Shown here: positions 1 to 60,078 of the stretch, piece by piece
How the letters are laid out: the number at the start of each line of letters is the position of its first letter
How positions within the stretch are numbered: position 1 is the stretch's first letter
Virus record (IMG/VR): IMGVR_UViG_3300044475_000064
Span: 1-60,078 of that record
DNA from: a virus
Strand: one strand, 5' to 3'
DNA length: 60,078 bases
Notes under the pieces: generated by a model
Database searches by the model: none
Seen by the model: only the letters and a program-made list of their open reading frames with translations
Told to the model about the DNA's origin: nothing
Translations under genes and position numbers: made by a program

Positions 1-127
1 CCTGTTGTTCTTCGGGTGTCAGTTCTTCGGCATCAGGATCTCGCATACCAGTTACCTGACGGATACGCTTAACAAGCTCATCACGTCCTGCAAGATCCAT
101 TTCCTCAACGATCAGATCGAGCATGAC
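1..127. repeat. Terminal overlap: nt 1-127 are identical to nt 59952-60078 (circular or permuted genome, unit length 59,951 bp)
   Basis: First and last 127 nt compared base by base with no mismatch seen. An exact short end overlap is the usual signature of a circular contig from an assembler. Confidence 0.95.
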
Positions 128-1855
128 CAATGCAATTTGTGGTGCGACTGGTGCAAGCTGCTGTAACAGTGCAAATAGTTCTTCTGTTTGCGCCTGACGG
201 ACAGTAGCTCGCCAATCTTGATCGCTGATAATGAAGTCCGCTTTAGTTCGGATAATATCATTTTCAGGCAAACCGTCATTAATTGTAATGTATTCAGGCG
301 TGCCACGCATGTTGGTGATACGAAATTCTTTCTGTTCACTGAAAAATTGCTCAATAAGAGAAAGTTCTTTCTCGCCGTGTACTTGGACTGCAAAGCGTAG
401 GTTGTCAAAGATCCCTGCAGTGGTCATGCTGCCTTGTTCTTGACGCGCCGTGATCGCTCGACCACTTGTGGCGTTTGTAGATCGACCCATGTTCTCATCG
501 GTCACGCCCGACAGTGTTTGAATCATTGCTATAGATTGACTCATGAGCTGCATGTGTGCAGGTGCAAGCTCACGCTCAACATTGATCTCAAGTGACTTGC
601 CTGATTTTTTGATGATAATACCATCAGGGCGGCTTACTTCCTCAGCGAACTCATCAAGATCATCAACTGCACCCTCGTCCATAACAACCTTGTTGGTAGA
701 AAGGATATGAAGCGCCTTCGATGCACGCTTGTTGATGTCCTCCTGCATGTCACGCATACCACGGACCATACCATAAGGCATTCCATCACGGCCACGGCGG
801 TAACACCAAATTGGCGTAAATGGGAACTGGTTGTGCCGATACGGACTTTCACCATGCCAAAGCATCCCAGTATTGCAGAAAATAGCAACGTGCATACGCA
901 TCATTGTCCGAGACATCGGAACGGCTTTGCCTTCTGCGATCTCAGCTTCATGTGCGGCCGCAGGATCTTTCTCGTCGTAGACTTCACCTGAGAAATCCCC
1001 ACCGACCATGCGCTTAACATTGGTTGGCTTGCGATACCAGCATTCGATTAGACGTACACGGTCACGGCGGTATCCATTTATCGAATTGCGTATTGATGCA
1101 TAACCACCAAGCGCATCCTCGGTTGAATCCATTGGCTCATCGCCGTCACTGTCCAATCCATATGAGCGTGTACCTGCAGCGCTCGCGCGGACTATACCGA
1201 CACGATCAGGAAACATTGCCTCAGCAATATCGAGATCGACCCACTTTGAACGGAAAATATAGCGGCAGTCGCTCAGATCCTTTTCAGTACATGCGCTATC
1301 CCAAATGATATTCCGCCATGATTCATAGCGGTTATAGATCGGCTCGCCGTCATCTTCGTTCTGTACGCCACTTTCGATCCAGCCGATGCCAGTCTTAACG
1401 CAATCCTCGAATGCACGAGAGCGATGGAACGGCGAACGGTTCACATCACTTAGGTATTTCATCAACTGAGTTTTGCGCTCTGCAGGTTTACCTGCATCCT
1501 TACGCCGTGGCAGGATCTTATAGTCAGTACGTCCACGCTTCTCAGTACCAAGCACCCAATTGATGCTCGATGAGATCACGTTATAGACCAATGGAACTTG
1601 ACCACGTTCCTTTAAGATCCGTGCATCTTCCTCACGCCACTGGATATTATCGTAGAAATCCTCATCCGTGGCTTGATCAACTCGGTTCTCTGCCTGTCGA
1701 TCTAGCTCATCTTCGTACAAGCACATGAGACGGCGGCGCTGTGCTTCCATCGCTTCACTGTCAAGCTTGTGACGTTTCTTTCGCCCTTGTGTCTCTGACT
1801 CAGGCATACGAGTCCAAGGATCTGTTGTATCAACACGACCATTGGAGAAATCCAT
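1..1855 (-). CDS. Portal protein, N-terminal about 618 aa. The CDS runs off the window edge and continues at 59951..59500.
   Basis: Manual translation of the minus strand is open from ATG 1855 (alternative ATG 1807). Checked codon by codon over 1262-1855 and 124-220: MDFSNGRVDTTDPWTRMPESETQGRKKRHK..YDNIQWREEDARILKERGQVPLVYNVISSSINWVLGTEKRGRTDYKILPRR.. It is absent from the ORF track because its stop lies beyond nt 1. It joins in frame with ORF 59500..60075 through the overlap, about 768 aa in total. It sits between terminase and scaffold/capsid. Confidence 0.8.
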   Translation of the reverse strand, partial: MDFSNGRVDTTDPWTRMPESETQGRKKRHKLDSEAMEAQRRRLMCLYEDELDRQAENRVDQATDEDFYDNIQWREEDARILKERGQVPLVYNVISSSINWVLGTEKRGRTDYKILPRRKDAGKPAERKTQLMKYLSDVNRSPFHRSRAFEDCVKTGIGWIESGVQNEDDGEPIYNRYESWRNIIWDSACTEKDLSDCRYIFRSKWVDLDIAEAMFPDRVGIVRASAAGTRSYGLDSDGDEPMDSTEDALGGYASIRNSINGYRRDRVRLIECWYRKPTNVKRMVGGDFSGEVYDEKDPAAAHEAEIAEGKAVPMSRTMMRMHVAIFCNTGMLWHGESPYRHNQFPFTPIWCYRRGRDGMPYGMVRGMRDMQEDINKRASKALHILSTNKVVMDEGAVDDLDEFAEEVSRPDGIIIKKSGKSLEINVERELAPAHMQLMSQSIAMIQTLSGVTDENMGRSTNATSGRAITARQEQGSMTTAGIFDNLRFAVQVHGEKELSLIEQFFSEQKEFRITNMRGTPEYITINDGLPENDIIRTKADFIISDQDWRATVRQAQTEELFALLQQLAPVAPQIALVMLDLIVEEMDLAGRDELVKRIRQVTGMRDPDAEELTPEEQQ

Positions 1856-1877
1856 TCCACTGTCTTTGTTGTCTGCA

Positions 1878-2300
1878 TCAAACACGTTCGATCACCTCTT
1901 TGTGCGTGACCTTTCCTGTGTCGTGGTCAGTTTGGAATGCATCGGCTACAACAACATCCTCAGTCTGCTTAGGAGGGATGCGAAGTAAGTCACCTAGATG
2001 ATCGTGAATGAGTGAAGCTACCTTCATTGAAGTGAATGCATTGCTCGCATCCATTCCGTTTTGAAGTAGGAATAATCCGATCAACTGGGCGCTACGGCGT
2101 GGATCTGCATCAATGTCGTCAGGTTGCCATTGCCAGGCATCATCGACCTCGACAACTAGTGGAACTGTTTTACCCATGCGATAAGCAGGGAGAACAACGA
2201 GACACGGACGCAAACGCTGCCCGTGCCATGCGCCGTAAAGCATTAGATCGCCTCGCTTTTTCTCGAAGTGAGGCTTTGTGAGATCGAGATCGTACCGCAT
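1878..2300 (-). CDS. Hypothetical protein (140 aa)
   Basis: Long ORF tightly packed upstream of the portal. Its stop is 23 nt from the portal start. No motif recognised. Confidence 0.65.
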   Translation of the reverse strand: MRYDLDLTKPHFEKKRGDLMLYGAWHGQRLRPCLVVLPAYRMGKTVPLVVEVDDAWQWQPDDIDADPRRSAQLIGLFLLQNGMDASNAFTSMKVASLIHDHLGDLLRIPPKQTEDVVVADAFQTDHDTGKVTHKEVIERV

Positions 2301-10799: not shown

Positions 10800-11717
10800 T
10801 CATACTGCACCACCAAAAATACAAAGTTGACTTGATACAGGTTGCTGTACATAGAAGTTTGCTGAATTAACAGACTCGATTCTTGCTCGCATAACAGCAG
10901 CTCGCATCTCTTTAGTCGGCGGCATGTAGTTGCCTTTCCATGCTTGGTCAATTCCGATATTTCGTGCAATGTTTGTTGAATCTGCTGATTCAAGAGGAAG
11001 CTTTGAAAAGATTACTGGATTAAGCATTCGCAATCCATGCATTTTGACCAGCGGAAAACCATCCTTATCACAGACGACATTCATCATTTGATTCATGCGA
11101 ATCCACCATTCATTTGTCCCAATATCAGCAAACTCACCAGACGAACCCAGTGCTACACGTGAGTAATCAGTAGCCAAGCGCTCTAAACGGTCCAATGACT
11201 CATGCATGTGATAAACTGGTACAGCAAACTCTTTAGAAACTGGACATTCTGCAAGTAACGCATCGTTATCCGCTTCTGTACCATCAATCACATCGGGAAT
11301 CACAATCCAATCGCAATGCGGATATCGCATACAGTTCAATGCAAAGTTATAAAATTCAGTCCAATCCGTAATAGGCTTGCCTGACTTCCATGCGCTAAAT
11401 GCTCCGTTGTCTACCGCAAAGCTTTGACAAACTTCGATAGCAACTCCAATTTGTTGTTTGTGTGCAAAACTTACAAATGCATGTCCCTGTTTAACCGCTT
11501 CATAAGCTGCCGTTGCAGGTGTAATTGGCAAGCCGTGGTAGTGCTTCATCGCCCTTGTCCCTCGCACCTGGTCATGCTTGCCTTTGCTTTTTCCAGCATC
11601 CAATTCAATCGCAATTTTAAATACATGCGATTGGCTTCTAGTGTTTCTTTCGTCCTGATCCCTTGATTGTATTTGCTTCTCAAGGTTATCATTGTTCTGT
11701 AGTTCACCCTTCACCAT
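10800..11717 (-). CDS. dpdA: DpdA-like tRNA-guanine-transglycosylase-family protein (candidate DNA 7-deazaguanine inserting enzyme)
   Basis: Ordered motifs MKHYHGLPITP, FAVDNGAFSAW, DWIVIPDVIDG, VALGSSGEF, KMHGLRML and LESADSTNIARN are collinear with the DpdA pattern as I recall it (lDSGaFs .. wa.qDw .. GlGS .. lHgfG .. SaDS). The track N-terminus (to 11831) overlaps the upstream gene. Alternative start at 11549. Confidence 0.6.
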   Translation of the reverse strand: MVKGELQNNDNLEKQIQSRDQDERNTRSQSHVFKIAIELDAGKSKGKHDQVRGTRAMKHYHGLPITPATAAYEAVKQGHAFVSFAHKQQIGVAIEVCQSFAVDNGAFSAWKSGKPITDWTEFYNFALNCMRYPHCDWIVIPDVIDGTEADNDALLAECPVSKEFAVPVYHMHESLDRLERLATDYSRVALGSSGEFADIGTNEWWIRMNQMMNVVCDKDGFPLVKMHGLRMLNPVIFSKLPLESADSTNIARNIGIDQAWKGNYMPPTKEMRAAVMRARIESVNSANFYVQQPVSSQLCIFGGAV

Positions 11718-12714
11718 CCTTGGATGCGAGATCCCAACTACACATATACAAATTTTCAAACTGGTCGGCTGACATTGGATTGTTATCGTTTGGCGCAACA
11801 CCAAGCTCATATTCAAGCTGCTCAAGTGCAACCTGATTTGCTGATTTTGGTTGGAAAATCATCTTCACACCATCCAACATGCAAGAAAATGGCAAGCCAT
11901 CTTCACGGCGACCATATACGCGCCCATCTTCAAAACGATCTACAATGCCATATCCTTCAAACTTTCCATCTAGCTCTCCGTGACTGTTTCCATCCTTGAT
12001 CACGTAATTCACAATATCAAAACTGACGTAAACACGAGCACCCTTTTCGATATGCGTCACACCCTCTGCAGCAATCTGAAACATACCCGATCCAGTGTGG
12101 CACATATCTGCAAAAACCTGCTCCAATCCGCTTGCAGTTGTAATCAACTTGGGAAATGATTTGCTCCAACGTTGTTCAGAAAAATGTTTGGTACGGATTC
12201 GATTGAAAACAGGCTGATTTAGTCCAGTCATCACCCTCATTTGATCACGTTTCCATTGTGGCCACTGGCTAACCGTTTCCTCACACTTGTCGAGGTACTG
12301 CAGTAGTGTAGGCGGCTGACCGATTGGCGGTTTCATCATCTCCCCACCGTTGTCGGTGTATCCAAGGCGTTCAAGTTGCCATTTCAATGATGCAATTTGT
12401 TGGTTTTGTGCATTGAAGCGCTCACCTTGTTCTCTAAATTGCTTACTGATTTCACCCCAGCGAGTGATAGCATGGTTCTTTTCATCCCGACACATTTGAG
12501 CTTTTGAATTAGCTTCATCAATTTCTGCCTGACGGTGCTGCCATTGTTCCCATAACTGCTGCTTGATCCATCCTGAATAATTCCCATTTGACATCATCGT
12601 GCATTTATCGTTCGGATGTGTTTTTGCATAATACTGCTCAAATTGTTCACTTGGTTTATTCATTGCCCATATACTCCGCTGCTGTCGTTGTCGCTGTTTC
12701 TGCCGTTTGTTCAT
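11704..12714 (-). CDS. Hypothetical protein (336 aa) with an N-terminal coiled-coil-like region
   Basis: ATGA overlap with the upstream gene. No family recognised. Confidence 0.7.
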   Translation of the reverse strand: MNKRQKQRQRQQRSIWAMNKPSEQFEQYYAKTHPNDKCTMMSNGNYSGWIKQQLWEQWQHRQAEIDEANSKAQMCRDEKNHAITRWGEISKQFREQGERFNAQNQQIASLKWQLERLGYTDNGGEMMKPPIGQPPTLLQYLDKCEETVSQWPQWKRDQMRVMTGLNQPVFNRIRTKHFSEQRWSKSFPKLITTASGLEQVFADMCHTGSGMFQIAAEGVTHIEKGARVYVSFDIVNYVIKDGNSHGELDGKFEGYGIVDRFEDGRVYGRREDGLPFSCMLDGVKMIFQPKSANQVALEQLEYELGVAPNDNNPMSADQFENLYMCSWDLASKDGEG

Positions 12715-15622: not shown

Positions 15623-16711
15623 TTACTCACAAAGCCCATAAATTGATGAGCATGAAAAATTCCCTTCATCAATCGCAGTGATCAGATCAAATTGCTTACC
15701 ACCGCGTGAGGTTTTTGACCAAGCTACATGGTCATATACTCCGTGGCCACGTTGTTCGTCTGATGTAAAAAATGTTGCTGATTGCCTTCTTGAAACGATA
15801 GAGACAAGTCTCTCCCATTCAGCAATCCGTGTAATTTCATCAGGAAATCTCTTAGCAATCTCAGATAATTCCGCCTTGCGTGCATGGATGCATGGCATAC
15901 ACCCAACACGACCCATTCCCATCTTGTAAAGCGGATTAGGATCAATGCCGTGTTTTTTATGCATATCAAAGCAATCTTGAGCTGTCCAACTTAGGATTGG
16001 GCGATAGTTGATTAGACCTGATCCACCAAGATCCTCAATCTCAGTCAATTTTGACCGAGATTCAGATTCATCTGCGCGAACTCCCTGCCATGACCAAACC
16101 TCGTCATGCAGATCCAAAAGCGGCATGATTACCTGGAATTGAATAGGTACACGCTTTAATTCCTGAGAGCAGAACCGTGCTTTAGTTGATGGAAAACGTC
16201 CTTTCCAAAGACATAGATCAAGGAATGGATTTCCTGTCGGAACAAGGAGATCAGACGCTCGCTGAACAATTTGATCAGCAATTTCAGGCTCAATAGGTTT
16301 ACGCGCTGGAGTCCATACCCATTTACCACCGTCTGTCTCAATAGCCGCACTCTGATAGATTTCGGATGGTCTTGCAGGCTCACTGACAGGCTTTAACGCT
16401 TCATCAACATCAGTATCTTTCTTCCAATTCCACTCACCATCAAAGCCATTGACAAAATAGTCAAACCATGTGGTGAGTACATTGTTACGCTTACGCTCTA
16501 TCTCTACAGAAAAATTAGCACGCACCCACTGAATGTTAATTTTCAGCTTGTCTGCTAAATAGCGCACATAGTCATAAGTCATTTGATGCTCATTACCCGT
16601 ATCAGCAAAAACAGCGTCAAACTCAACACCACGCTCTATGGCGAGCAGTAGCATCGCTGTTGAGTCCTTTCCGCCTGACAGGGAAATCACATTCTTTTTT
16701 GTATTATCCAT
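15623..16711 (-). CDS. PAPS-reductase-family (PP-loop ATP pyrophosphatase) protein with a large internal insertion
   Basis: VISLSGGKDSTAMLLLA (SGGxDS PP-loop), VFADTGNEH, FCSQELKRVP and C-terminal GCMPCIH match the PAPS reductase/DndC-like family pattern. About 100 extra residues lie between the N- and C-terminal blocks. Confidence 0.7.
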   Translation of the reverse strand: MDNTKKNVISLSGGKDSTAMLLLAIERGVEFDAVFADTGNEHQMTYDYVRYLADKLKINIQWVRANFSVEIERKRNNVLTTWFDYFVNGFDGEWNWKKDTDVDEALKPVSEPARPSEIYQSAAIETDGGKWVWTPARKPIEPEIADQIVQRASDLLVPTGNPFLDLCLWKGRFPSTKARFCSQELKRVPIQFQVIMPLLDLHDEVWSWQGVRADESESRSKLTEIEDLGGSGLINYRPILSWTAQDCFDMHKKHGIDPNPLYKMGMGRVGCMPCIHARKAELSEIAKRFPDEITRIAEWERLVSIVSRRQSATFFTSDEQRGHGVYDHVAWSKTSRGGKQFDLITAIDEGNFSCSSIYGLCE

Positions 16712-20604: not shown

Positions 20605-21197
20605 GCTTACTAGACAAATCGGTTGTTTTGCTCCCTCCGTATGCGACAAAAAGCATTTATACGGTAGTCAAGGAATTTGAGCATAAAGGGAGGGCGAAAG
20701 TTCGCCTGCGTCATCCTAAAACTGGATCTGAGCACGCTAAGTTGGTGAGCGAGATCCGCATCGCCAGCGATCAGGAGCAGGCATGCGGCCACCGCATTGA
20801 TCCCCACAAGGCGTTTGAGGAATGGTTCAAGAAGCAACCGTTCTATGGAAAGCTTGTATATATGTGCGGTGATCGGATCTTTGATTTCGATTATGCCGAC
20901 CAAACCTATCGCACGCTGACCGTCAATGTATCGTGGATCACTTGGCAATATAAAAATCCTGATGCTAAAGAGTTCAGTCATCTTAGGTCATTGGATGAAA
21001 TGACTATTAATCATCTTGGTCATGCTAATCAGGAATGGCAATTGAAGTGTCATAAGCTGCAAAAGCAGGTGGATGCTATCAATCAATTGATTGAAGATTA
21101 CAAAGATCCAAGTATCACCTCGGATAAATCATTCCAGCATGGACTATTGCTTGTCGTTAGAGAGTTAGAGCAAGCGCTCAAAGGCGGTGCTGAATGA
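20601..21197 (+). CDS. Hypothetical protein (198 aa)
   Basis: ATGA-coupled ORF. Confidence 0.65.
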   Translation: MSLLDKSVVLLPPYATKSIYTVVKEFEHKGRAKVRLRHPKTGSEHAKLVSEIRIASDQEQACGHRIDPHKAFEEWFKKQPFYGKLVYMCGDRIFDFDYADQTYRTLTVNVSWITWQYKNPDAKEFSHLRSLDEMTINHLGHANQEWQLKCHKLQKQVDAINQLIEDYKDPSITSDKSFQHGLLLVVRELEQALKGGAE

Positions 21198-26155: not shown

Positions 26156-26232
26156 TGGTTGCGAGAGTTGGATTTGAACCAACGACCTTCGGGTTATGAG
26201 CCCGATGAGCTACCAAGCTGCTCTATCACGCA
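26156..26232 (-). tRNA. tRNA-Met (anticodon CAT), initiator-like, CCA encoded
   Basis: Cloverleaf folded by hand, 77 nt: TGCGTGA TA GAGC AGCTTGGTA GCTC A TCGGG CTCATAA CCCGA AGGTC GTTGG TTCAAAT CCAAC TCTCGCA A CCA. It has a GGG/CCC anticodon stem and A11:T24 like bacterial tRNA-fMet. There is one T:T mismatch in the acceptor stem. Confidence 0.8.
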
Positions 26233-26236
26233 ATAT

Positions 26237-26312
26237 TGGTGCAAAGAAATGGGATCGAACCATTGACCTGCGGATCTTCAATCCACCACTCTACCGACTG
26301 AGTTATCTTTGC
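26237..26312 (-). tRNA. tRNA-Phe (anticodon GAA), CCA encoded
   Basis: 76 nt: GCAAAGA TA ACTC AGTCGGTA GAGT G GTGGA TTGAAGA TCCGC AGGTC AATGG TTCGATC CCATT TCTTTGC A CCA. All stems pair. Confidence 0.85.
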
Positions 26313-26318
26313 ATTTTG

Positions 26319-26396
26319 CTCGATGGGCCGGACTTGAACCAGCGACCTCCAAAGGGCTTTATACCTTTGCTACTCTACCGACTGAGCTACCAACGA
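26319..26396 (-). tRNA. tRNA-like gene with a non-canonical anticodon arm (possible pseudo-tRNA or unusual decoder). No CCA encoded.
   Basis: The acceptor stem (one T:T mismatch), D-arm (GCTC AGTCGGTA GAGT) and T-arm (GCTGG TTCAAGT CCGGC) are canonical. The anticodon arm is GCAAAGG-TATAAAGC-CCTTTGG, a 6-7 bp stem with an 8-nt loop. Confidence 0.55.
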
Positions 26397-27408: not shown

Positions 27409-30400
27409 TTAATTGTAGATAGATGGTGACTGATCCTCAACCAAACGATCACGCAGCTTGTTGTTATAGCGCATACCACCTACGGCGTTGTCAGCACCTT
27501 TATCACGGTTTTTACGTGATTGAGAAATACTGCGAGGTGTGATCTTCTGCTCAGGATTCTTCTCATTGAACTTGTCAATTTTCTCAGCAAGTTTATCGAG
27601 CTTCTTCTCATCACCCTCTTGGTTGGCCTTATAGTAATCATCCATGATGCTCTTGCGCTCTTTGATGATCGTTTGTTGCATGTTGAAGCTGGCGTTATTG
27701 GTCTGATACTGTTCCGCAATACCTGCAGGTGTAAAACCAAGTGCCTGTTTGATCACATCAGAAGTGGTCACATCCGTAACAGTATCACCACGCATATTTT
27801 TCGCGCCTTCCGTTTCATAGCGATAGGCTTTCATCGGATCTTTAAGCATCTTCGGCATCATGGTCTCAATACCACGATAAACCTCACCCTTGCCGATATA
27901 ACTCAAACCACGGGCAAATTGAGCACCAATTGCAGGTACAGCACCAAGCAACTGGCTTTGCCAAAATTGTAAAGCTTCCTCACCTTCTTTCTCGCTGTCA
28001 GGTGATCTAAACCAAAGGTCAGCCATACCAACCGAAGCGGACAATGATGTGCCTGTTACATAACCAGGTACGCCGTGCAGTGCCAATCCTGCCAATTTTG
28101 GACCAATTGATTTTATCATTGCTTTTTTAAGTTCTTCTTTTGGATCTTCACCGTCATCCATGAACATCCCTGCCATCACCATCGCAATACCAAACAACCA
28201 TGTACCTGTGATACCTGCGTTCAACATCATCATGCCTGTAATACCAGCAAGCTGAGAGAATGCCTCCTTACGGACTTCCTTAGTCTCACCATTCAATGCT
28301 TGGTGAGTATCACGGAATAGGCGATAGAGCATGTTGATTTGGAAATTACGGAATACGAGTAAGATCTTCATCGTGTCATTGTGCATCAGTCGAGGGCGCG
28401 ATGTATTTGAATAATCAAAATGCGTTTTCCAAGTCAGATCGCCTGCTTTTGTCACTGCAGCATCATGGCTAAGACCTTTTTTGCGAGCAAGACGGTATGC
28501 AGCAAGGAATGTGACCTCACGGTTTAGACGTTCAGCATGATGGAAGCCCCAAGAAATGATTTTCATTGCACGCTCACGGGCAGCACTGTACTCAACACCA
28601 GTCTCACCAACACCTGCAAGGTCATGCCCTTGTGTACGCTCGATCACGCCTGCCTCATAACCGTCAGCCATTGCCTTGCGTTCTTCTGCAGTCAAACCAC
28701 TTGAACGCTCTGCAAAACCCTTACCTTTGGTGAAGTCAACGAGCGCATTGGTCAGCTCCTTACCTGCACGAGCAATACCATTCAGACCGCCTGCATATGC
28801 GCCAAGGATCGGCACACCCATGATCGGTGTCTGAAATAAGTTCATGATCGCAGCTTTTGGACTACCTGCGAGATACCATACGAATGCGAAACTTGATGCC
28901 CATTGAGCCAATGCGCCACCAGTCGGTGACATCACAAACTTATGGCGCTTCTCCATTTCATTAACGATCAAGCTGCTACGCTTAGGATTCTTGGTTTCAC
29001 GAGCATCATCCCGTGCTTGATCAAGTGCATCCTCTAGATCCATGCTGTGCGCCATACGTGCCAACTGGTGAGATCCGTGGAACATATGACTACCGAAAGC
29101 ACGGACGGCATCGGCGTTATAGCCTTCACGCCCTTTACGATGGATACGAGCCTTACGCACTGACATATCAGGCAATGACTCAAGATAACGTTGCCATACT
29201 TCATCCTTGACCTGCTCAGCGTTCGGCAGATCAGCAAGAATATCTTCAACATCGGCAACAAAATTTGGATCTACTGCTTTTCGCTCAGCTGCCCCATCAA
29301 TCAAAGCACCTTCTTCAACTTTATAATTTGCATCCTTTCTCATTTCCTCAGCAAAACGGCGCTGTTCGGTCGGATCTTCAAAGCGAGAGAACGATACTAC
29401 TTCCCCAGTCTTGGCATCGCGTACGGTGACAAATAGCGATCCAAACCGTGCTAATGGGAAATATGGTCCTTGGAGACGCTGCGTTTCAAACTGCTTGCGT
29501 AGGCGCGTCATACGAGCCTTACGATTCCATGCAATTTTAGTCTTAGCATTATTAAGAGCACGGTCAGCTGCAGCAATTGCATCATCACGCTCCTGTCCTT
29601 GCAATCCCTCATCAGTGATGCGCTCCATTTCACGGCCATGCTCACGCTCAGCTTTTTTGATACGGACATTGATTGCCTTTTCCATATTAGCAAGCAGTAT
29701 CTCATCAAAGGCATCAGCGAGATCCGTGTACGTGTCACGCACCTTTTTATAGATCTCTTTTGCTTCTGCAGACAATGGATCAAAACGTTCTTTCAGTACG
29801 TCATAGGCTTCTTCACGCTTGTCATCAAGTTCCTGTTTCAAGGTCAGTTCAGCTCTGAGATTTGCATTCAGATTAGGATTGGCCAAAGATCTTTTTTCTT
29901 GTGGAGTCATCAAGCTTTGGAACGGCATGGACGGATCAACCTGGTTTAAGGTCGATTCATGCATAATATCCATCAGCTCACGGTTTTCGTCCTTGTTCTT
30001 GATGCGATATTTCAACCACTCTTGAGCAACGGCATCGGTCTTAGCGTGCCATTTATTGCGCATGGTATCCATTTTGTCCTTGACGCGCAGATAAACCTTG
30101 GCAGACGGTAGATCACTCGCCATTTCATTGAGCATCTGGCGTAATGGAATCAAACCTAGCGCACCGTTTGTCATCAACTTGGTTAGTTTGTCAGATGGTA
30201 ATTTTTTGGCTTCATCCCACCACTGTTTAAGCTTCATTGCATACTCATCTTCTGAAACAGGGCCGAGATCATCATCAGCACGGCTGAAACGGATGTCAGG
30301 ATTGGTCGGATCGAATGCTCCAGTGTTATCAGTGGCAGATTTAATTTGCTCAGAATCAAAAACAGATAACGTTTGATGACCATCATCGGAAAAAATAATA

Positions 30401-33400
30401 GCGTCATATCCAAGTTCTTTAAGCTTAGGTACTAAATCGTTTGCCCAATGCTTATTTTTAAACTCATGTTTTGTTGAGTTCCAATCGAAATACCCATCCT
30501 TAGCCTGGTTCACAACACTCTGACCAAAGCGGCTGCTTGCTTGGATACCTGCCAAAACTTTCAAACCATGATCAGTATTTAGATCAAGTGGATTTTCAGA
30601 ACGCACATAGATCGGCTTAATACGAGCATCAGGATAAATTGGATTGATGTCTCCATAATCCATCATGTCCTGAATATCACGAGCGCTTAGGCGAGATCCA
30701 TCCTGACGGTTCACGTACTCATTACCATCAATTTCATAGATATTACCGTCATTGTCTTGATACACTGGATCGCTACGCTTACGCCCACCACCAGCACCTT
30801 GCGCATAACGATCAGCAATATCCATATCGTCAGTGGTATGAATCAGACCACCTGCCTTATCCTTATCCCATTGTGACCAGTTATCTCGTGTGCCGTGATA
30901 GCGAATTTGTGGTTTCCCATCCTCATCCACCACCTTACTGTCACCAAACCACTTTTTAAATTCAGGTGTGTTTGTCTGATCTTCACGGCTAAAACGAGAG
31001 CCTGATCCATGACTCGCATTGAAAGCAATCAGATAATTTTCATAGACTGTTTTCTCCTGATCCACGATCTTGAATCCTGCATCCGCATCAGGAATATAAC
31101 CCTCTTTGGTCTTGTCACCATTGCCACCAATAACAACGCCATCCTTACCAAGCAGCCAAACATAGCTATCAGTTTTCGGCGCAAAGCGCTTATCAAAACC
31201 AGTTCTTCGGCTATATGGCTGATCAGAATATTCGCTTATTGATAAAGCATTGACGCTTACACCCTCTCTAAAGCCATCTGTCAAAATTGGTTCACGGTTA
31301 GATTCACCACCTCTGAAATCAACATGGATGCTCTTATATTTTTTAAAGAACTGTTTTTTAGTGAGTGGCTTATTTGATGTGTCAGCCTTGCTGAAACGGC
31401 GCATACCATTTGCATCGCGATTGCCAAGCGTATTGACCATACGCTCAGCCAAGGCGAGTACATCATTCGCATTCAGATTGAGATTTAAGCCAAGCTTATC
31501 CACTGCCCATGCTTTGACGGCGGCAACGATGCGATTGACAAGAGTTTGCACACCTGGTCGCTTGTTCTGCGCACGAGCTGCAACGGTGATCAGATACGGA
31601 AGATACTCATCCTGACGAGCAGCTGCATCTGTCTCACGCTCAGCAAGGCGTTTTGCCTCAAGTGCGATAGGATCTTTAGCAGCCACCAAGCGATCAAACT
31701 GATCCATCAGGTTCTTGTAGGCAGTCGGCTTCATCACGCCCTGCATACCAGCGTGACCACCGAGCTCATGCAGAAACACTGGAACAATGGTGTCAGGTGT
31801 TAGAGCGTTTGCAACGAGCGTTACGTTCCCATCCTGCGCATAACCCTCGACACCTGCAATACGGAAACTGTCATCAATGCTCAGAATGCCTTGATCCTCA
31901 AGACGAGTGATCACGTCCTTGCCGAAACGCTCAATCAGACGATTGCGGACATCGGCAACAGTTATGCCAGTACCCTTCCGATCACCTTGGCTGAATAGTA
32001 GTTTTTCCTGCTGTGCGATGATGCGAGCACGATCACCTTCTGATTTAGGATCATAGGTTTTGATCTTTAATCCTGCATCACGTAGTACCTGCAGCGCATC
32101 TTTATCCATACCCTTTGGCACAACAGCGGTATTGAACTCGCTGAATTGAACGGCACGCTGAGCCTTCGCCTCAAAGTACGCCGTTGGTAGGTTTGCAAGG
32201 TAACTGGTCAGGTCGGCAATGATCTTGCGTGACTCAGGTGTGACCTTAAATGCCTCACGAATGCCTTTCTGCCCCTCCGCGATTGCAGATCCAGCATCAT
32301 TGAGATAGCCCCAACCGTTCGTGTCGTATTTGTAGAATGGTTTGAGACGTTCAAGCGCATCCTCAAATACCTTGGACGATTCCTCTTTTAGCTTCTCCAT
32401 TTCAGCCTCAGTGACGATCTGATCACGGCGAGATTGGATGTCTTTGAGCGTTTTCATTTCATTGGCGTAAGCAGAGCGTGCGCTACCTGCACCATAGAAT
32501 GTGCCCTCACCTGCCTGTAGCTGCTGAGTCATTTCAGACACGACGTTCTCAAGCGTGTAAGGCAGATATTTTTTGTTTCCTGCATTGGTAAAGCCTTTAA
32601 ATAAGGTCTTACCAGTCACCATCGAATTGAATTTATCGGTTGCCCATTTCTCGAAAGCTGCGCGTGTTTTTTCATTACGCATCTTTTCCGAAAGATCGCT
32701 TCTCAATTGAGCATAATCGTAACCACCACTTTTGCGGTAGTTGTCTGCTTTCATAGCTAAGTCATCAAGTGCATACGGCTTGAGCGTACCATCCTCGTTG
32801 TAATAACGTGCCTTTGCACGAGCCACGCCTTTTTGATTGATCTCACGCATAACCTCCTTTGCATCATCAGGCAAAGCAGGATCAATTGGCTTCTCGTACT
32901 CAGCGATGCGAGACTCAAAATACTTTTTAGCAATGGCAGCAAATTTTGGATCTTGTGGCCATGAGAAGCGAGATCCTTCCAGTTTTGCAGCGTTCTTGAT
33001 GTATGGATTGACCTTAGCCTGTTTCAATTTTGGTGCTTTGCCGATCTCATTGAGATATGCAAGCTGCATTGCATCTGATCGAACAAAGTTTTCAGCTCCG
33101 TCTGTACCACTCGCCTCATCGAGACTCGGCAAGCGAAGTCCGTTTGCATTCTGTTCAAGCTCGCTGAGCAGCGCATTAAATTTCTTCTTGTCTAGCTCAT
33201 AGCTTGCCCGTGGCTGACGTGGAGAATAAATATCTGCATCGAACGTGCGGATCTTTGAATCCTCAAGAAGCTTCGGATCTGCCAATAGGGTGACTTCACC
33301 AAAGCCTGAGAAGTCAGACACATCAGAACGAGCGACGGCGATAGATGGTGCAGCAAGCCCACCTAGATCGTTCGCAGCCAAAATGTTCGATGCGCTCAGG

Positions 33401-36400
33401 TTGTGAGCGACAAATAGATTTTTAGGTTGTTCATCAGTCTTTGAAAACTGAGCTTTCTCACCGTTCAGATTAACAATTTCTGAATATCCGTACTTATCCT
33501 TGGTCACAACCGCATCGTAACCAGCCCTTTTGATCGCTGCAGACAGCGCCTTACCTGTCTTGCCGTCAAACATTTCCGACAAGTCTTTTTTCCACCCACT
33601 GCTGTCAGTGGATTTATGCTCAAGCACAAGCGGATTTTTGAACGAGATCACACCGTACTGCCAACCAGGACTGTTCATGGCTGACATATCATCAGTCGCA
33701 ATGTTCATGTACTCGCCTGCAGGTTCTAAATCCTGCCCAAAGTCCATGCCTTGTGGATAGTTCTTGCTGCTGACTGTGTTGCGAGAGAAATACGCATTAA
33801 TTGGCTTACCAGTCTCAGCATCTTTCGGATCTGTGAGATCAGCGCGGCTGAAACGAATATCAGGATTGGTCGGATCGAATGCACCAGTGTTGTCAGTGGC
33901 GGATTTGATTTGCTCAGGACTGAATGTCACATAGATTGTTGAAGGTTTATAAATATCCTTGGCAACCTTTTCAGCTCGCTTTAGATCTGCAGCATCTAAT
34001 GAGTCAACCTCGACATATTCACCATCAAGCTTAATATAACTTCCATAATCAATAACATTAGAAAGAATAGCACCATCTTTTCCATCGTTTTTTGCACGAT
34101 GAGCCATAAGGTTCGTATCACTTACACCAAACAAGGCCTCGTCAATTTCAAAATCTTGAAGGTTATGATGTTCCGCAAATGACTTTGCGTCTTTCTCAGA
34201 ATCGAAAATAAATTGGCCATTATCACCAATAAATGTATCAAAACCATCTACAGTGATTTGATAAGCTTTTTTTTCTCCTTGGATTGTTCCATTCCACATA
34301 TTTCCACGGTAGTTGGCAAGTTGTGGATCTCTAATATTTAGGAATACTGGATAAATTCCAGGTGATGCCTCATCGCTATCATACTCATCACTTGCTTTTG
34401 CTTCGTCAATAGATCCTGCATAACTAACTGCGACATCACGATTTGCCGCAAAAAATGAAGATCCAGGCGGTGTCTCAGAGAAGCGAGGCTCAGCGTCGTT
34501 ATCAAATTCAGAAAAACCAGCCTGTTTCGCTCCATGATAAACCACCAACGGCTCACCATTCTCATCAACCACCTGTGATGCGTTGGAAGCATCGTTTTCC
34601 CAATCACCAAACCAGTTTTTAAATGACGGCGTGCGTACCTGCAACCATTGCTGCTCATTCAAATTGGTTAGTTTTCCGTTAGGCGCTTTCATCCATTGGT
34701 CAGTGCCTTCGTACTGTTTGCGCACATCATTTATCTCAGAATTTTGATTGTCCGCACGGCTGAAACGTAACTTCTTGTCAAACCAATAATCCTCTAGGAA
34801 CTTGCCAAGGCTTTCAGGATTCGTACCTGAGAATAGTAGCTGCCCGTCTTGGCGCTCGATGCGAATGCGACCTTTCTTCTCAACGATACGAACGCCTGTG
34901 TCCTTGCCCTTATTGGATAGTATCGCGCCGTCAGAATTGACTGAGCGACCATATTGCTGTGCTACATCATCGTACTTCTGAAATTTGTTTTCAGTATTGG
35001 ATTCTTCGGCTGGTTTCGCCTTAGTAGTATGCTTCGCTTTCGGCGTAGGTGTATCTATAAGTCGCATTTCACTTAACGGCGTACCAACATCCACACCCTT
35101 ACGAGTGAACAAAATAGAGCCATCATCCAAAATTTTACGATCAAAACGTGGCTGAATTAACTGACGTGTAAGTGGGCGTAATTTTATGCCTTTTTGGATA
35201 AGGATTTGATCAATCGCATCCATACCAATAAAGTCAGTCACATATTCACGACCTGTAATGTCGCCAGTACCAGGCTTATAGTTTTCCTTGCCTGATACTG
35301 CATCGCCACGCATCTGAACTAAGATGCCTTTGTTAGCACCCTGACCCATTGCGAGATCAATATTATCGGCAACATACAATTGGGATGTGTTGCCGCCGCC
35401 ATTAGTCAATGTATTGCGTGTTAGATCATATAAGCCTTCCGCATCCATTTCACGGTAAACAGTTTTGCCAATAGGTGTTGTTTTTCCTGTGAATGGTCCA
35501 ACATTATAATTTTTTGGCATGGATGGACGTTCGGTCTTAGCCGCTTCCTTTTTAGCCATAGTGTCTTTAACAACTAGTGTTTTTACGGCTTCCTGTGCCT
35601 CAGCTAGAGTGTCGTAGTATCCATATTCATTACCATTATTCTCATCACGATACAGTGTAAAAATAGGATACGGCTTATCATTACGCATACGAGACTCATC
35701 AACAATGATCATACCGTTTGATGCAATCCACGTTTTATCACGAGTATCATGTGTCGACCATGTGATTTTTGTCTCATCACTGATCTTCTTCTCGATTTCC
35801 TTGTTTTTACGATACTCAATGTAACGTTTGAGGTCAGCTTTCTCATTGAGCAGGCTTTCTTTCATGCGCTCAGCTTTATTTACAGCACGTTTCTCATGAG
35901 CTTTAGGATCATTAATAATTGCATCCTGCTCAGCAATGTTCTGATCAATTCTAGGAAAATCTGCTTGTAGCTTCTCAATAGATATATGACCTTTGCTTTG
36001 GTCATAGTCTTTGATATTTCTTTCAAAAGAAATCTGATCCTTAGATTTTTTAGCAACAGGCGTAGTCTTAGGCTGACTGGTATCTACAGTCGAACTAGGG
36101 AACTCATGAGCAGTCACAACTAGGTCACGAATAGGCGCATTCAGGCGAATGACTTTCACATCCTCACCAGTTTCACGCGCAGCCATCCATTGATGATGAC
36201 CATCAAGAACATGGTTATCACTTGAGATCAGGATTGATCGGTTGCCACCTTCATAATTTTTAGCCTTATCAACCTTCTCCTGCGAGAACTCGGCTTGTGT
36301 CGGTTTTAGGCTGTCAGCGGTAACTGTTTCCTCCTGGTGTGAGATACCGCGTGCATTCATAAAGTTGACCATTGCGCCACGGTGTTCGGCTTTGATCTGT

Positions 36401-39400
36401 GGCATTTCTGCACGAGGAATACCGATAGTGCCTGACTGGTCAGAAAATTCAGACCAACCGTCACCAATATCCTTGCCTTTGATGTCCTGTATGGTATCAG
36501 GTGTTTTTGTTTCAGCAGCATTTGATTTTATTTCAATCATGCCGCTTGATTTTGCCATATCAATGTTAGTGTGAGTCTTTCCTTTCTGAAACCAATCACC
36601 ACGCCCAGTCCATTCATTTGATGCTGTTTTTTCCCAAAATAAGCCACGTTCTTCCGAGAACTCACTTGGGCGGAAGCGAGTTCCAATTGGTTTGTTGAGG
36701 TAGCTCTCCGCTTGATTTTCAAGTGCTTTCTGCTGCACTTCAAGTTGCAATTTTTTAATATCACCAAGGTATTCTCGCGTGATCGCTTTTACTTCTTCAT
36801 CCGTACTTAGAATAATTTGTTTCTGACGTTTTTCTTCTTCAAGGAGACCTTGCTCTTTCGCTTTTTTGTGCGCATCTACTGCGTCGTTATAGCGCTTAAT
36901 TGCATTATCTCTTTTTTCCTGTAGCGAATGTGTCTTAGGCTTGCCATACTTACTTAAATATCTCTCGTAGGCACTTTCAAGTGTCTTGCCGCGAGCATAC
37001 TCATCGGGAGAATGCCCGATTGACCAGGTGTTAGATTCTTTAGAGATATTCCACTTATCTTTTCCAGTATACAACTTGCTATCAGGATAGCCGCTAGGAA
37101 CATATCCATTGTAACCATCCTTGTCCTTACCAAATGCATCAGCTTCTTTTTGCATTTCAGCTTGTTCAGTAAAGTATTTATTTAGTTGTTTTTGTGTTGT
37201 ACTAGGTAACTCATTAAATGACTTTGTGCCCATGTCTTTTGCAGAAGCCTGAGCCTTACCTTGTGCAGTAGAATAGCCAATAGTTTGAAGGATTCTAATG
37301 CGGTAAATAGGGTCTAAACCATCCCAAGCAACATCACTATTCGTCACCTCTGTTGTGACAGATACAGTATTTGACGGCGTAGGTTCAGGCGATTTCAGAT
37401 TCACATACTGAGATCCATCCCATTCCTGCAGATTGCTCATTTCAATTTGATCGTTGGTGCTTCTTGACGCTTCATTCAATGCATCTTGAACATCCTTCGC
37501 GCCGATCATAATCCAGCCGTACTGACCTTTGTATCGGTAGCTCTTTAGACCATCTGCAGCCAATGGCTTATCTGTGGTTTTCTGCTCAACCTTTTGCTCT
37601 ACAGGCTTAGCCTTCCCAGTCTCATATGCATCAACAATACGTTTTACATCAGCAAATACCTGTGACCGTGTACGACCTGACTTTTTGATCTCAGCCTGAA
37701 TCAATCGCGTTTTCTGTGATGGATTATTGATATGAGCATCAAGGAAAAGCTCATCAAATGACGGCGTTTTCGATGCTTCTTTTTTTGTTTCTGCATCGTT
37801 ACGTGCTACGCCGTGCCAAACATCATCGGCTGTTTTCACACCAATAACAGTGACACTTCCATCATCATTTTTTTGAACGTTATAGTTTGGATTGCTCAGT
37901 GCAGCCTGAATTGAATCCTCCTTACGGTAAGTCAGTCGATCTGTCTTATTATCACGGACGTACTCAGCTACTTGATCACGCGCACCCTCATCCATACTAC
38001 GGCTGATCTCTGACATACCTTGCTTGATCTGCTCAGCGGTGCTTGATAACTCCGTTGTTTTTTCAGCTGCAGCTTGCTTTTTAGCAAGCTTATTGATTGC
38101 TGCTTCAACCTTACGGCGTTCGGCTGTAAGGATCTTATCCCAACCGCCATTAGTTTTTGCCAAAGTTGCAAGGTACTTCATGCGAGCACGAAGTTCAGCA
38201 TCAGTCATACGACCGAGTGTTTTCTCGGCTGGCTCTATCTCAACGGACGTAATAGGTGGCGTATCGACTGATTGCCCCTCAGTGGTATCAAAGGTCGATA
38301 GGTTCGGATCTTCTGCAGCCTTTGCAGGTTGTGTCGGCTGATAACCAAAATCAGTTAAATCAGGTACGTTCGATGCTGCTTCTGCATTTCCTGACGGAAC
38401 ATCCGTTCCGCTATCTCCTTGTACTGCTGCAATTCGCGGATCTTCTTGGATTGCTCGATTTGAGATAGTCTGATCATCCGTTGAAATTCCATCGGTGGTC
38501 TGTACATCATTTACTTGCTCCACTGTAGTCGTATCAGTAACAGGCTGTGCAAAATTCACATCACCCTGACCAAATTGCATCGGCGTACCATCTTGATCAC
38601 GCGCAAAAACATCGCCGTTCTCATATCCATCTACTGTAACCGTATAGACGGCATTAGGATCTGCTTTAGGCGAGATCTGTGTAACTGTACCAGGTTCACC
38701 GAGCCATTGATCTTGAGAAGCTTGCACGGCGTTACGCTCAGCTTCGATCTGAGCATCAAGGTTATCACCACCGATTGCTCGCTCAATTGGACCAGTTCTG
38801 CGAGCAGGTTGCTGCTCAGGCTGAATTGGCTGTTCAGGTGCAATGTCCTGCGTTGGTGTGTCTGTTCCTGCCTGTGGATCATCCTGTATAGACTCGTCGA
38901 TCTGTGGCGGAATGTTTGTACGATGTCCAGCTGCACCGAGACCGCCGCCCATAATACTACCAAGCACCGCACCACCTGCAGCTTGGTTTGCAACACCCTT
39001 TGTCAATGAACGGTTAGGATCTGCCTCTTGAACAGCATAGTTTTGAGCGACCTGTTGCAATGCGCTCTGTGGCATTTCCTCAAGTAAACCCTCAGCCACG
39101 GCAGCGCTTGCCGCGCTCTTGAATCGGCTTTTCGTACCCTCTGTAATAACCTTGGCAATAGCACGGTCTCCCATACCACCAAAGATACCAGTTCCAATAC
39201 CTGCCAATACAAATGCTTTAGTCGCTGCGTCCTCAGCAATTAGGTTACGTGCCTGCTCAAAGCTCTTACCATCTGCTATGAGTGCTTTCATCGCATCCGA
39301 GTTTTTAAGCATATCCTCAGACATGCTATTGATCTCTTTGCGGACATCAATTGCAGCATGAGCACCACCAAAACCACCCTCAATCAAGCCACCTGCAATC

Positions 39401-44071: not shown

Positions 44072-44497
44072 TTAAACTCTATGACTTTGCGGAATATACT
44101 TACATTCTTCACGAAGCATACCTAGAACGATTATATCGTCATCAGGTAGCGCATTGCGTAAATAACCTTCTTGCTTGAATCCAAGGTGAAGATCAAATCG
44201 CAATGCTTTCTTGTTCTTAGCAGGTACAAGCCCTGTGACACGGCGCAAATCCCACTGGACAAATGGATGCATGAAAGCAGCAATCAGAAATGCACGACTT
44301 AACCAGCCAGTTTTTTCATCACTCGCAATATGAATATTGCAATCACACTTGGAAAAACTGTCATATAAGACAACAGCTCTAAGCTCACTGTTCTCACGCC
44401 AACCTACTGCAACAACATCAGGGCGTGGCTCAAAACCAATGATCTTAGAAGCCCATTCGACCATCTGACCGCCATCGTCATAAATCATCTGACCCAT
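44072..44497 (-). CDS. GNAT-fold acetyltransferase-like protein (141 aa)
   Basis: The C-terminal ..VPAKNKKALRFDLHLGFKQEGYLRNAL resembles the GNAT C-terminal beta-alpha unit. The canonical Q/RxxGxG/A motif is not evident. Confidence 0.45.
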   Translation of the reverse strand: MGQMIYDDGGQMVEWASKIIGFEPRPDVVAVGWRENSELRAVVLYDSFSKCDCNIHIASDEKTGWLSRAFLIAAFMHPFVQWDLRRVTGLVPAKNKKALRFDLHLGFKQEGYLRNALPDDDIIVLGMLREECKYIPQSHRV

Positions 44498-45192
44498 AGC
44501 GCACCGCCTAAGCCAATTTCAATTATGGTGAGGTTGCCGTTGTAGACAGCACCAGTGTCAATCCAAATGCAGTTGTCACGTTTGCATGGCTGCGATGTAA
44601 CGGTATGACCTAAGATCACAGCATCAACGCCGTTTACATGCATATATTGTTTTGCATCAGGATCTAGGCGCTCACGACCCCACATTGCATGATCAACTGG
44701 ATCTCTGCCTAAATAATTACCTTGTCTTGAGTTAAACAATGTTTGTTTAAATTCTTCCCAGTCATTCTGCTCAATGTGACCGTGTACAAAGCCATATTTA
44801 TAACCGTTGTAGCTAATCTCCATTGCAATAGGTAGCTCAGAAAATACCTTAGCAATGTTGTACATTGATTGACTATCAAGTTGATAAAACCATTCACCGC
44901 CGTTGTCTATGTGGCAGCGTTTGTATGACTGATCATGAAGCCCTAGAATGCACAGTTCTTCATGATTGCCTCGTACTGCTACAAACCAAGGTTTAGAAAG
45001 CAATTCGACGCATTGAATATTCTGAGATCCACGGTCTACAAGGTCGCCAACTGAGACAAGTAGATCCTTTTCAAAGTCAAAGCCAATATGCTCTAACTTC
45101 GCCATAAGGAGGTTATACATGCCATGCAGATCACCCATAGAAAATAAACGTCCGATGATCGGACGATCCAAAATTTTGACTAATTCACCCAT
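44485..45192 (-). CDS. Lambda-type Ser/Thr protein phosphatase (calcineurin-like metallophosphoesterase)
   Basis: GDLHG, GDLVDRG, RGNHE, VHGH, ILGHT and IDTGAV are collinear with lambda PPase. 19 residues precede GDLHG when the start is ATG 45192. The track start 45240 is a TTG without an RBS. Confidence 0.85.
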   Translation of the reverse strand: MGELVKILDRPIIGRLFSMGDLHGMYNLLMAKLEHIGFDFEKDLLVSVGDLVDRGSQNIQCVELLSKPWFVAVRGNHEELCILGLHDQSYKRCHIDNGGEWFYQLDSQSMYNIAKVFSELPIAMEISYNGYKYGFVHGHIEQNDWEEFKQTLFNSRQGNYLGRDPVDHAMWGRERLDPDAKQYMHVNGVDAVILGHTVTSQPCKRDNCIWIDTGAVYNGNLTIIEIGLGGALWVR

Positions 45193-45259
45193 GCCGAAAA
45201 CACCGTTGTCGCTATAACAACAGTGTAATCCAATTGACAATACGAAAGTAGCGAAAAGG

Positions 45260-50900: not shown

Positions 50901-51157
50901 GCATTGGTAGGCGGTGTAAGTGCGATATAAAATGTTTTGTCAGGACCAACCGTTGATTGGCCATACACGATGACCTGTACCTGCTTCTCTGTCTCGCCAG
51001 GTAGGAATGTAACAACGCCGCTTGCAGCTTGGTAGTCGATACCTGCTTTCGCTGTACCGTCTTTTGTTGACCATGCGACATCAACTGGTTCTGTGAGCGC
51101 AACACTCAAACTAATAGCAAACGCTGCAGTTGTTGCCCCGATTAAAGGATCAGTCAT
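47966..51157 (-). CDS. Tail spike/fibre with an N-terminal Calx-beta domain and a C-terminal SGNH/GDSL hydrolase domain (1,063 aa)
   Basis: Calx-beta: DGTAKAGIDYQAASGVVTFLPGETEKQVQVIVYG. SGNH block I is VSVIGDSLTSAG, block III is IMLGINDV and block V-like is NGVHPDTSGY. Confidence 0.7.
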   Translation of the reverse strand: MTDPLIGATTAAFAISLSVALTEPVDVAWSTKDGTAKAGIDYQAASGVVTFLPGETEKQVQVIVYGQSTVGPDKTFYIALTPPTNAILGNSLVDCIITVVDDEGTPITMVIVAQGKRGFKGDPGLSAYQQAALMGYTGTVEQWMAEIADASAAANRSSQSANESAGYAANSAASAASAENIAVTITALNNGQEYYLTQAELLATTPSVTKKAAKALDTKKVWLWQKPGAPAGTWTDTGLSELDQAKAEIQRSAQFNGWFDPAFELLDLTNRNYFGRERMWNGFGGWSKVQNAFFGGKAMRRADGYNVTTLSGFVTHLDELGVVTGDSITAYVLCVGNASNVYSVARFQDAVGNVYGGSPLMLNEAGTNILATSLTTPKWLRLTLTVPAGADRLIVYPYNASGTVGFDVIGHWVSIGTISTVSQFPLYRTPLPTLRYNDLVGRIAAPFDVYINSKHSTEKVGNGTYGLIKMGGFYEVAAKAGNVNAVQCRIWKSIPSDVDVRIYKRLSTDSLAFNPSLITPNQSFTIAAANFPTTDQDFYIKFPADIYLNAGELLYVLFKATDGGAFNNKIWSYDASATPARHGFALSTISDWNGTIGISSAPLGYGATSMALLRLYGEFDFRCDAVNIRYGSSNVDTALKALEAALPSIAPPIIIIPPKVYAVQNKEMNVYFNNLLTGPVSDFLVDVSASVGIQQCERLVINSATASTANATITLSDKKTGTQLATATTSLQVVASSAKSGTTQKVSVIGDSLTSAGTITQTLLDNASTDVMGVQLIGTLGTGLNKHEGRGGWGINSYTTAGPTYWAFTVSGVTVTPLINATEYTNNGTTFRVQSVNLTGGAGTIVCSVQSGSNAPTASGTLTKSNAVAGDATIAFSASASQPGNPFWISGAVNYAQYLVNNSLVTPDFVAIMLGINDVFAQTSDANATSTATTRLNQLDTLIASIKAVNGTIKVLLMIPPPPAGQDAFGKNYLVGETAWRHKRNIVLWAQSMIAKYSGQEANRIYLVPTNVAIDTVNNYPTETVAINSRNTNTMVRQSNGVHPDTSGYQQIADALTAALKAI

Positions 51158-59499: not shown

Positions 59500-60078
59500 T
59501 CATTGTTGATACTGTTGAAGTCCTGCCGACTGATCGGATTGACCTTGTTGTTGCTGTGCAGCCATTTGTTGCTGCTGAGCTTGTTCTTGTTCTGCCTGAG
59601 CCTGTTGCTCCTGCATCATTGCTTGTTGCTGTTGGGCTTGAGCTACCGCTTGCGCAGTTTCCTCATCTTCCTCAGTACGCGATTTAAAATTTGCTTCATG
59701 AAGCATTACATCTGCTACACGTACCGCACCAGGCACGCTAATCGCAGCAAGTGCAGCTTCAAGCGCCGTTTTCTGCGTCTGAATGTTTTGACCAGCCAAT
59801 GCGCCAAGTATTTGCTTAACGTTTGCCTGATCTTTCTGAGCTGCCACCATATCACGCTGAGCTTTGGCTTCTTTGCCTGCAATAGTCGCCTCTGCATCAC
59901 GGCGTTGTAATTCAGCCTGTTGCTGAGCTGCTTGCTGTTTCTGCATTTCAGCCTGTTGTTCTTCGGGTGTCAGTTCTTCGGCATCAGGATCTCGCATACC
60001 AGTTACCTGACGGATACGCTTAACAAGCTCATCACGTCCTGCAAGATCCATTTCCTCAACGATCAGATCGAGCATGAC
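59500..60078 (-). CDS. Portal protein, C-terminal part with a Gln/Ala-rich tail
   Basis: Same frame as 1..1855 through the 127-nt overlap. The track ORF ..LDLIVEEMDLAGRDELVKRIRQVTGMRDPDAEELTPEEQQAEMQKQQAAQQQAELQ.. ends QQQQGQSDQSAGLQQYQQ. Confidence 0.8.
   Translation of the reverse strand, partial: VMLDLIVEEMDLAGRDELVKRIRQVTGMRDPDAEELTPEEQQAEMQKQQAAQQQAELQRRDAEATIAGKEAKAQRDMVAAQKDQANVKQILGALAGQNIQTQKTALEAALAAISVPGAVRVADVMLHEANFKSRTEEDEETAQAVAQAQQQQAMMQEQQAQAEQEQAQQQQMAAQQQQGQSDQSAGLQQYQQ
59952..60078. repeat. Second copy of the 127-nt terminal overlap
   Basis: Identical to nt 1-127. Confidence 0.95.

Follow-up and report, generated by a model that had tools for sequence, protein, structure and literature searches.

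We identified a singleton phage DpdA-family guanine transglycosylase gene (dpdA; positions 10800–11549, minus strand) in the window, the term that we use for the whole 60,078-nucleotide stretch of viral DNA analysed here (IMG/VR record IMGVR_UViG_3300044475_000064). The gene is a member of the phage DpdA family, its homology to the DNA-modifying DpdAs of phages is solid, and its product is a phage-type DpdA, neither a bacterial Dpd-system DpdA nor a tRNA enzyme. Its substrate would be DNA, and we favor with moderate confidence a reading in which the enzyme swaps some guanines in phage DNA for a host-made 7-deazaguanine, probably preQ0, at a low level. This is not a new system, as the use of host precursors has already been published for this class of phages (PMC6884629). 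New beyond the literature are the clade-specific coupling of dpdA to a YhhQ-type transporter gene, a recurrent PAPS-reductase-like neighbor and a probable Acinetobacter host.

Sequence, fold and active site of the window DpdA

The initial annotation had assigned a DpdA-like transglycosylase to an open reading frame at 10800–11717 on the basis of five motifs. All five are present, in the order given there, in one minus-strand ORF: FAVDNGAFSAW (residues 44–54; 11388–11420), DWIVIPDVIDG (residues 80–90; 11280–11312), VALGSSGEF (residues 132–140; 11130–11156), KMHGLRML (residues 169–176; 11022–11045) and LESADSTNIARN (residues 186–197; 10959–10994). The strand and extent of the gene required correction, since it lies on the minus strand and its true start is the ATG at 11549 (MKHYHGLP..., 249 aa; stop codon at 10800–10802, minus strand). 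More than 5,600 homologs in the database are 245–250 aa long and align from residue 1 of this 249-aa form, and a purine-rich ribosome-binding region, read from the sequence (gagggacaagggcg; 11550–11563, minus strand), stands directly 5' of the ATG. The upstream ATG at 11717 was rejected as the start because it would create a 14-nt overlap with the preceding gene and because the homologs fit the 249-aa form. A search of the coding strand across the 154-nt gap that precedes dpdA gave neither a sigma-70 promoter nor a terminator.

The motif set is well past chance, as is evident from the number of homologs and from the match of the protein to PHROG 887 ('queuine tRNA-ribosyltransferase') at E = 6.5e-67. 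With the DpdA of phage CAjan as query, tblastn found the window ORF at E = 5e-7, and hhalign aligned the two proteins with a probability of 95.6% from a shallow alignment and 98.8% from a diverse one (E = 6e-17, 174 columns), with all motif blocks collinear. A tblastn search of 50,697 phage records gave an unbroken series of matches from the window DpdA to the DpdAs of Queuovirinae, headed by Acinetobacter phage AB3P2 (64% identity), continuing through P22-like Salmonella phages, Stx phages and Vibrio phages (46–57%) and Salmonella phage 7-11 (35%, E = 3e-28), and ending with CAjan, Seurat and Iggy (~25%). Pfam (including PF01702) and NCBIfam gave no match to the window DpdA at E ≤ 1, PADLOC gave none in the window, and searches of PDB sequences (phmmer/hmmsearch; one single-protein run and two profile runs) returned noise only, namely a phosphatase and GCN4 coiled coils. 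Alignment of the dpdA family profile to E. coli Tgt with hhalign likewise failed (no alignment; probability 0.6%). The genetically validated CAjan DpdA is also without any Pfam match, and the PF01702 test is therefore unable to refute DpdA membership.

An AF2 model of the protein (pLDDT 86.5, pTM 0.84) forms a (β/α)8 barrel of eight alternating β/α units. A structure search of BFVD yielded 30 matches at E ≤ 1e-3, mostly phage 'queuine tRNA-ribosyltransferase'/DpdA models, with matches to phage DpdA models ranging from E = 7.6e-10 to 1e-4. The named matches were mostly DpdA-type proteins of actinophages, Dinoroseobacter phage R5C and a Sulfolobales rod-shaped virus, and Vibrio phage nt-1 scored more weakly (E = 9.6e-3). 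Foldseek against the PDB returned nothing at E ≤ 1e-3, and the bacterial DpdA 7UI4 was absent from the best 50 matches. The top TM-scores belonged to archaeosine TGT (ArcTGT; 1iq8 and 1j2b, TMq 0.52–0.55), followed by 4hvx (0.49), at E values of 4e-3 to 2e-2; MTHFR, TrpA, pyruvate kinase (PK) and RPE scored like TGT, such that the search confirms a TIM barrel without separating TGT from other enzymes of this fold. An unrelated TIM-barrel enzyme that carries DpdA-like motifs by chance would be in keeping with these near-TGT scores of MTHFR, TrpA and pyruvate kinase and with the negative Pfam and PDB-sequence profile searches, but the collinear hhalign alignment and the tblastn match to CAjan DpdA, together with the BFVD matches to DpdAs, effectively refute this explanation, which we rate as extremely improbable.

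In an alignment of 50 relatives at 32–63% identity to the window DpdA, residues D47, H171, S188, D190 and S191 are invariant, and ≥90% of the sequences retain D86, H114, G135, G172 and L173. In bacterial DpdA, Asp95 acts as general acid/base and Asp256 as nucleophile, base stacking is provided by Phe99 and Leu236 and base reading by Asp130 and His181, and a CXCX2CX22H zinc site pins a large insertion (PMC10164549). The segment D47-N-G-A-F51 of the window protein (codons 11397–11411, minus strand) contains the putative general acid/base aspartate and base-stacking phenylalanine, corresponding to Asp95 and Phe99 with the same spacing (D47-x3-F51, Asp95-x3-Phe99) and to DSGAF of CAjan, where hhalign aligns D47 to D63. 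The putative nucleophile, D190 (SADST; codon 10980–10982, minus strand), corresponds to Asp256 and is aligned by hhalign to D207 of CAjan (CDSSS). D86 (IPDVIDG; codon 11292–11294, minus strand), a putative base-recognition aspartate equivalent to Asp130, lies in a segment aligned to SVLDG of CAjan, one column off the CAjan aspartate. Judged by strand order in the model, D86, H114 and L173 would be the counterparts of Asp130, His181 and Leu236. The only cysteines are at positions 41, 73, 79, 102, 160 and 243, with no CXCXXC, and 59 residues follow D190; given the missing cysteine cluster and this short tail, the window DpdA is without a zinc subdomain, as CAjan DpdA apparently is too (no Cys cluster). 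Taken together, PHROG 887, the hhalign and tblastn comparisons with CAjan, the BFVD matches and the conserved catalytic aspartates bear out the DpdA-like identity proposed initially; of the two profile similarities to be checked, that to DpdA was recovered (PHROG 887; CAjan, as above) and that to the TGT family PF01702 was not.

The short tail also bears on whether the protein might be a tRNA-guanine transglycosylase that acts on tRNA, which we consider very improbable. Such a role would agree with the PHROG and GenBank name 'queuine tRNA-ribosyltransferase' and with the three tRNAs encoded by the phage. However, the name is inherited from superfamily annotation and PF01702 is not matched, the ~59 residues after D190 leave no zinc subdomain or C-terminal RNA-binding region, and the nearest validated relatives act on DNA. 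The tRNA genes stand in tandem at 26156–26396 (minus strand) and comprise Met(cat), Phe(gaa) and an unusual 79-nt tRNA; this last one is called as Phe, its anticodon aaa sits at position 37, and it may be non-canonical or simply miscalled. We also rejected modification of the phage's own tRNAs, as these are Met and Phe tRNAs and not the GUN-anticodon tRNAs that receive queuosine.

Genome context and precursor genes

The window represents a complete phage genome that is circularly permuted, with a unit of 59,951 bp, and its bases 1–127 are identical to bases 59952–60078 (an exact 127-bp terminal overlap). A P22-type portal gene (768 aa; 1881..1 joined to 60078..59500, minus strand; PF16510, 8e-201) spans the junction, and ORF lists made from the linear window consequently miss it and show spurious small ORFs in 1–1880. 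The backbone resembles those of PEp14/SopranoGao/Pavtok podophages, with TerL at 63% to Klebsiella phage SopranoGao and Erwinia phages PEp14 and Pavtok; no close nucleotide match to it was found among the 50,697 phage records, and megablast of 5 kb around dpdA against phages gave no match. The closest copies of dpdA are found in Acinetobacter chromosomes, as prophages (A. lwoffii 88%, A. baumannii 83%, A. venetianus 81% and ANC 3929 79%), and for this reason the host is likely an Acinetobacter. A full queuosine pathway is present in A. baumannii genomes (PMC6884629, supplementary file 6). No integrase appeared in any Pfam scan of the genome, though the nearest dpdA copies sit in prophages.

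Several other genes of this genome deserve mention. A 4,445-aa ORF (27409–40746, minus strand), which takes up ~22% of the genome, encodes a 'polyvalent' virion-type protein with an SLT lytic transglycosylase domain, two ART-PolyVal ADP-ribosyltransferase stretches, a PBECR5 nuclease and LPD39. Enzymatic domains are also present in two large tail proteins, one with a Calx-beta and a GDSL esterase domain (47966–51157, minus strand) and the other with a GP4-type adaptor and a GH5 glycoside hydrolase domain (51168–53702, minus strand); both are probably tailspikes that serve as depolymerases and deacetylases of capsule or exopolysaccharide. A calcineurin-like metallophosphoesterase (44485–45240, minus strand; PF00149, 1.1e-17) is encoded within the structural/injection block, an unusual place for it.

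dpdA itself belongs to a leftward early operon, in which genes for an HTH regulator, a DUF1064/resolvase-like protein, a PAPS-reductase-like protein and a replication initiator (O/DnaD-like) are followed by those for an MmcB-like nuclease and a 336-aa protein without assigned function and then by dpdA. This placement among replication and repair genes fits an enzyme that works on replicating phage DNA. The 336-aa gene (11704–12714, minus strand) is the next one upstream of dpdA; it belongs to no Pfam family and its PHROG matches are only weak. Weak homologs of its product (~31–33% identity) sit beside dpdA in L003 and L005, the two viral loci that are closest.

Pfam scans of the whole genome, covering every ORF of at least 50 aa, the junction-spanning portal and the 4,445-aa ORF, detected no FolE (GTP cyclohydrolase I), QueD/PTPS, QueE radical-SAM, QueF, glutamine amidotransferase or Vut_1 protein. 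Searches of the window by tblastn with CAjan FolE, QueD, QueE, QueC and YhhQ also found nothing, which together with the scans of all ORFs confirms the genome-wide absence of preQ0 genes stated in the initial annotation. The sole PP-loop protein of the genome, missed at that stage, is encoded at 15623–16711 (minus strand) in the operon shared with dpdA. Its SGGKDS PP-loop gives a weak match to QueC (26.8 bits, residues 7–72), but the full-length protein is PAPS-reductase-like (PF01507, 1.2e-27; phrog_424, 3.8e-77, residues 3–361), and identity as QueC was rejected since the PP-loop part alone matches. The protein carries C-terminal Cys motifs and is a possible partner of DpdA. The window dpdA is thus a singleton, accompanied by no FolE, QueD, QueE, QueC, QueF, Gat-QueC or ArcS in the genome.

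Related loci and the source of the base

We compared the window with 80 related IMG/VR loci (L003–L082; 777 kb). FolE, QueD, QueE and QueC were found near dpdA in none of the 80, and the singleton state is therefore the rule for the clade of the window dpdA. In 42 of the 80 loci a YhhQ/VUT-type transporter gene lies directly downstream of dpdA on the same strand, often overlapping it by 3–42 nt. The encoded ~170-aa membrane protein is assigned to Vut_1/YhhQ (PF02592; 39 bits, with the cutoff at 27.2), and its profile matches the annotated preQ0 transporter of CAjan at 5e-13. One example from these loci adjoins a dpdA homolog at 5200–5721 in L046, and a further one, outside the 80, is located at 20741–21214 in L001. 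The same arrangement occurs in Acinetobacter phage AB3P2, where the transporter is annotated as 'hypothetical', and in Flyfo siphovirus Tbat1_6, where a transporter is annotated under the match. According to a 2019 survey, YhhQ is not correlated with any group of phages (PMC6884629).

This coupling supports the view that the clade uses a 7-deazaguanine base that is free and can be salvaged. It provides a testable handle on the base source of singleton-DpdA phages and leaves the general picture of how DpdA systems work unchanged. The window phage and its closest relatives, L003 and L005, are without the transporter, and only one of 18 bacterial prophage loci has it; phages and prophages of this kind would have to use the intracellular base pool.

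For the window phage, host-supplied preQ0 is, in our judgment, the best-supported choice of base, and the reaction can be envisaged as follows. dpdA is transcribed in the leftward early operon with genes for replication and repair. By analogy to the reaction of TGT and DpdA, D190 would attack C1' of the target deoxyguanosine in duplex phage DNA, D47 would assist the departure of guanine, and a free 7-deazaguanine base, most likely preQ0 from the host queuosine pathway, would then be joined to the sugar. Modification would probably be low (well below 1% of G) and motif-specific, and would be limited by the host preQ0 pool, as the phage has neither a precursor pathway nor a transporter. The likely benefit would be partial protection from restriction.

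The base might differ from host preQ0 even if the protein is an active DNA transglycosylase, with preQ1, queuine, CDG, ADG or an undescribed purine analog as candidates, and a phage enzyme, for instance the PAPS-reductase-like protein, might then process the inserted base further. The substrate varies between DpdA subfamilies, preQ0 probably not being the base inserted by DpdA3; phage 7-11 has dADG and not dPreQ0; and several related bases could be imported by YhhQ/VUT transporters. In addition, 21 of 100 loci have a PAPS-reductase-like homolog no more than 5 kb from dpdA (11 of these 21 also with a VUT transporter), a count for which the background frequency is uncontrolled. We regard a different base as unlikely nonetheless, since there is no residue-level sign of altered specificity, the 9g DpdA expressed alone uses preQ0, and the association of the PAPS-reductase-like gene with dpdA is without support in the literature, where we found no such link.

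Just as unlikely, in our estimate, is that the window protein produces no meaningful modification of phage DNA and is instead kept for host DNA, for a glycosylase-like or anti-defense role, or for use in some hosts only. The invariant catalytic aspartates argue for base-exchange chemistry, and the frequent coupling with a preQ0-type transporter argues for a 7-deazaguanine substrate. The opposing evidence is that phage Orion, whose host is without the pathway, has retained a singleton dpdA and is free of 7-deazaguanine, that many relatives of the window gene occupy accessory (ea/nin-type) regions of temperate phages, and that functional divergence of singleton DpdAs has been raised by Hutinet et al. 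(PMC6884629).

A bolder proposal, to which we attach little probability, is that the compact, zinc-less 250-aa DpdA clade forms a distinct salvage-type module, more than half of it translationally coupled to a YhhQ/VUT importer and about one-fifth standing beside a potentially base-derivatizing PAPS-reductase-like enzyme; the window phage, with the PP-loop enzyme and no transporter, would then make a 7-deazaguanine derivative not yet described in DNA. Returning to host-derived preQ0, an active window enzyme would make this a DpdA-only phage of a likely Acinetobacter host, and according to a 2022 survey, modified bases in Acinetobacter phages had been addressed by no study. Low-level, host-dependent 7-deazaguanine marks would affect how readily restriction enzymes cut the DNA, the signal obtained in sequencing and the vulnerability to modification-dependent defenses such as GrwAB.

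Comparison with known transglycosylase systems

The tRNA enzymes of the superfamily (bacterial Tgt and archaeal ArcTGT; PF01702) have the (β/α)8 fold in common with the window DpdA. In contrast to them, the window protein is without RNA-binding domains and the zinc subdomain, and the two show no detectable sequence similarity. Bacterial DpdA (S. Montevideo; PDB 7UI4) shares a TIM barrel, a three-aspartate active-site logic and a base-stacking phenylalanine four residues past the first aspartate with the window protein. It differs in its insertions Ins1, Ins2, Ins3 and Ins8, in its CXCX2CX22H zinc site and in its dependence on the DpdB ATPase (PMC10164549), all of which the window protein does without. 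No DpdB/ParB-like or DpdC-like Pfam match was found in the whole genome.

DpdA1 of Queuovirinae (CAjan, 9g and Seurat, and also Pseudomonas phage Iggy) has a catalytic core homologous to that of the window DpdA, as seen in the diverse hhalign alignment. The two share collinear DxGAFS, (V/I)xDG, HG/HA and xDS(S/T) motifs, and both are without the zinc Cys cluster and without a Pfam match. DpdA1 differs in sequence (~25% identity) and in length (~306 aa, with N- and C-terminal extensions), and it sits in a FolE-QueD-QueC-QueE(-YhhQ) cluster and modifies ~16.5–32% of Gs, whereas the window gene stands alone. In CAjan, dpdA is essential for dPreQ0 in the phage DNA, and the 9g DpdA alone in E. coli gives 84–790 dPreQ0 per 1e6 nt of plasmid DNA (PMC6884629).

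The closest counterparts are the 'singleton DpdA' phages defined by Hutinet et al. in 2019, which include a cluster specific to γ-Proteobacteria phages and for which the use of host-derived or imported precursors was proposed (PMC6884629). BTP1, SPN3UB and Athena1, listed as DpdA-only phages in the supplementary table of that study (PMC6884629), are among the nearest isolate relatives of the window DpdA. Their DpdAs and those of Vibrio phages are 46–57% identical to it, and that of 7-11, the nearest relative with modification measurements, is 35% identical. The measurements on singleton phages differ between cases: 7-11 carries 50 dADG per 1e6 nt (0.02% of Gs), with dADG and not dPreQ0 as the base, and Orion, whose host is without the pathway, has no 7-deazaguanine modification (PMC6884629). 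Like the window protein, the singleton DpdAs of γ-proteobacterial phages are ~245–250 aa long and have no co-encoded preQ0 pathway. The window phage differs from the 2019 set in two features found in none of its members, a ~60-kb PEp14/SopranoGao-like podophage genome and a probable Acinetobacter host.
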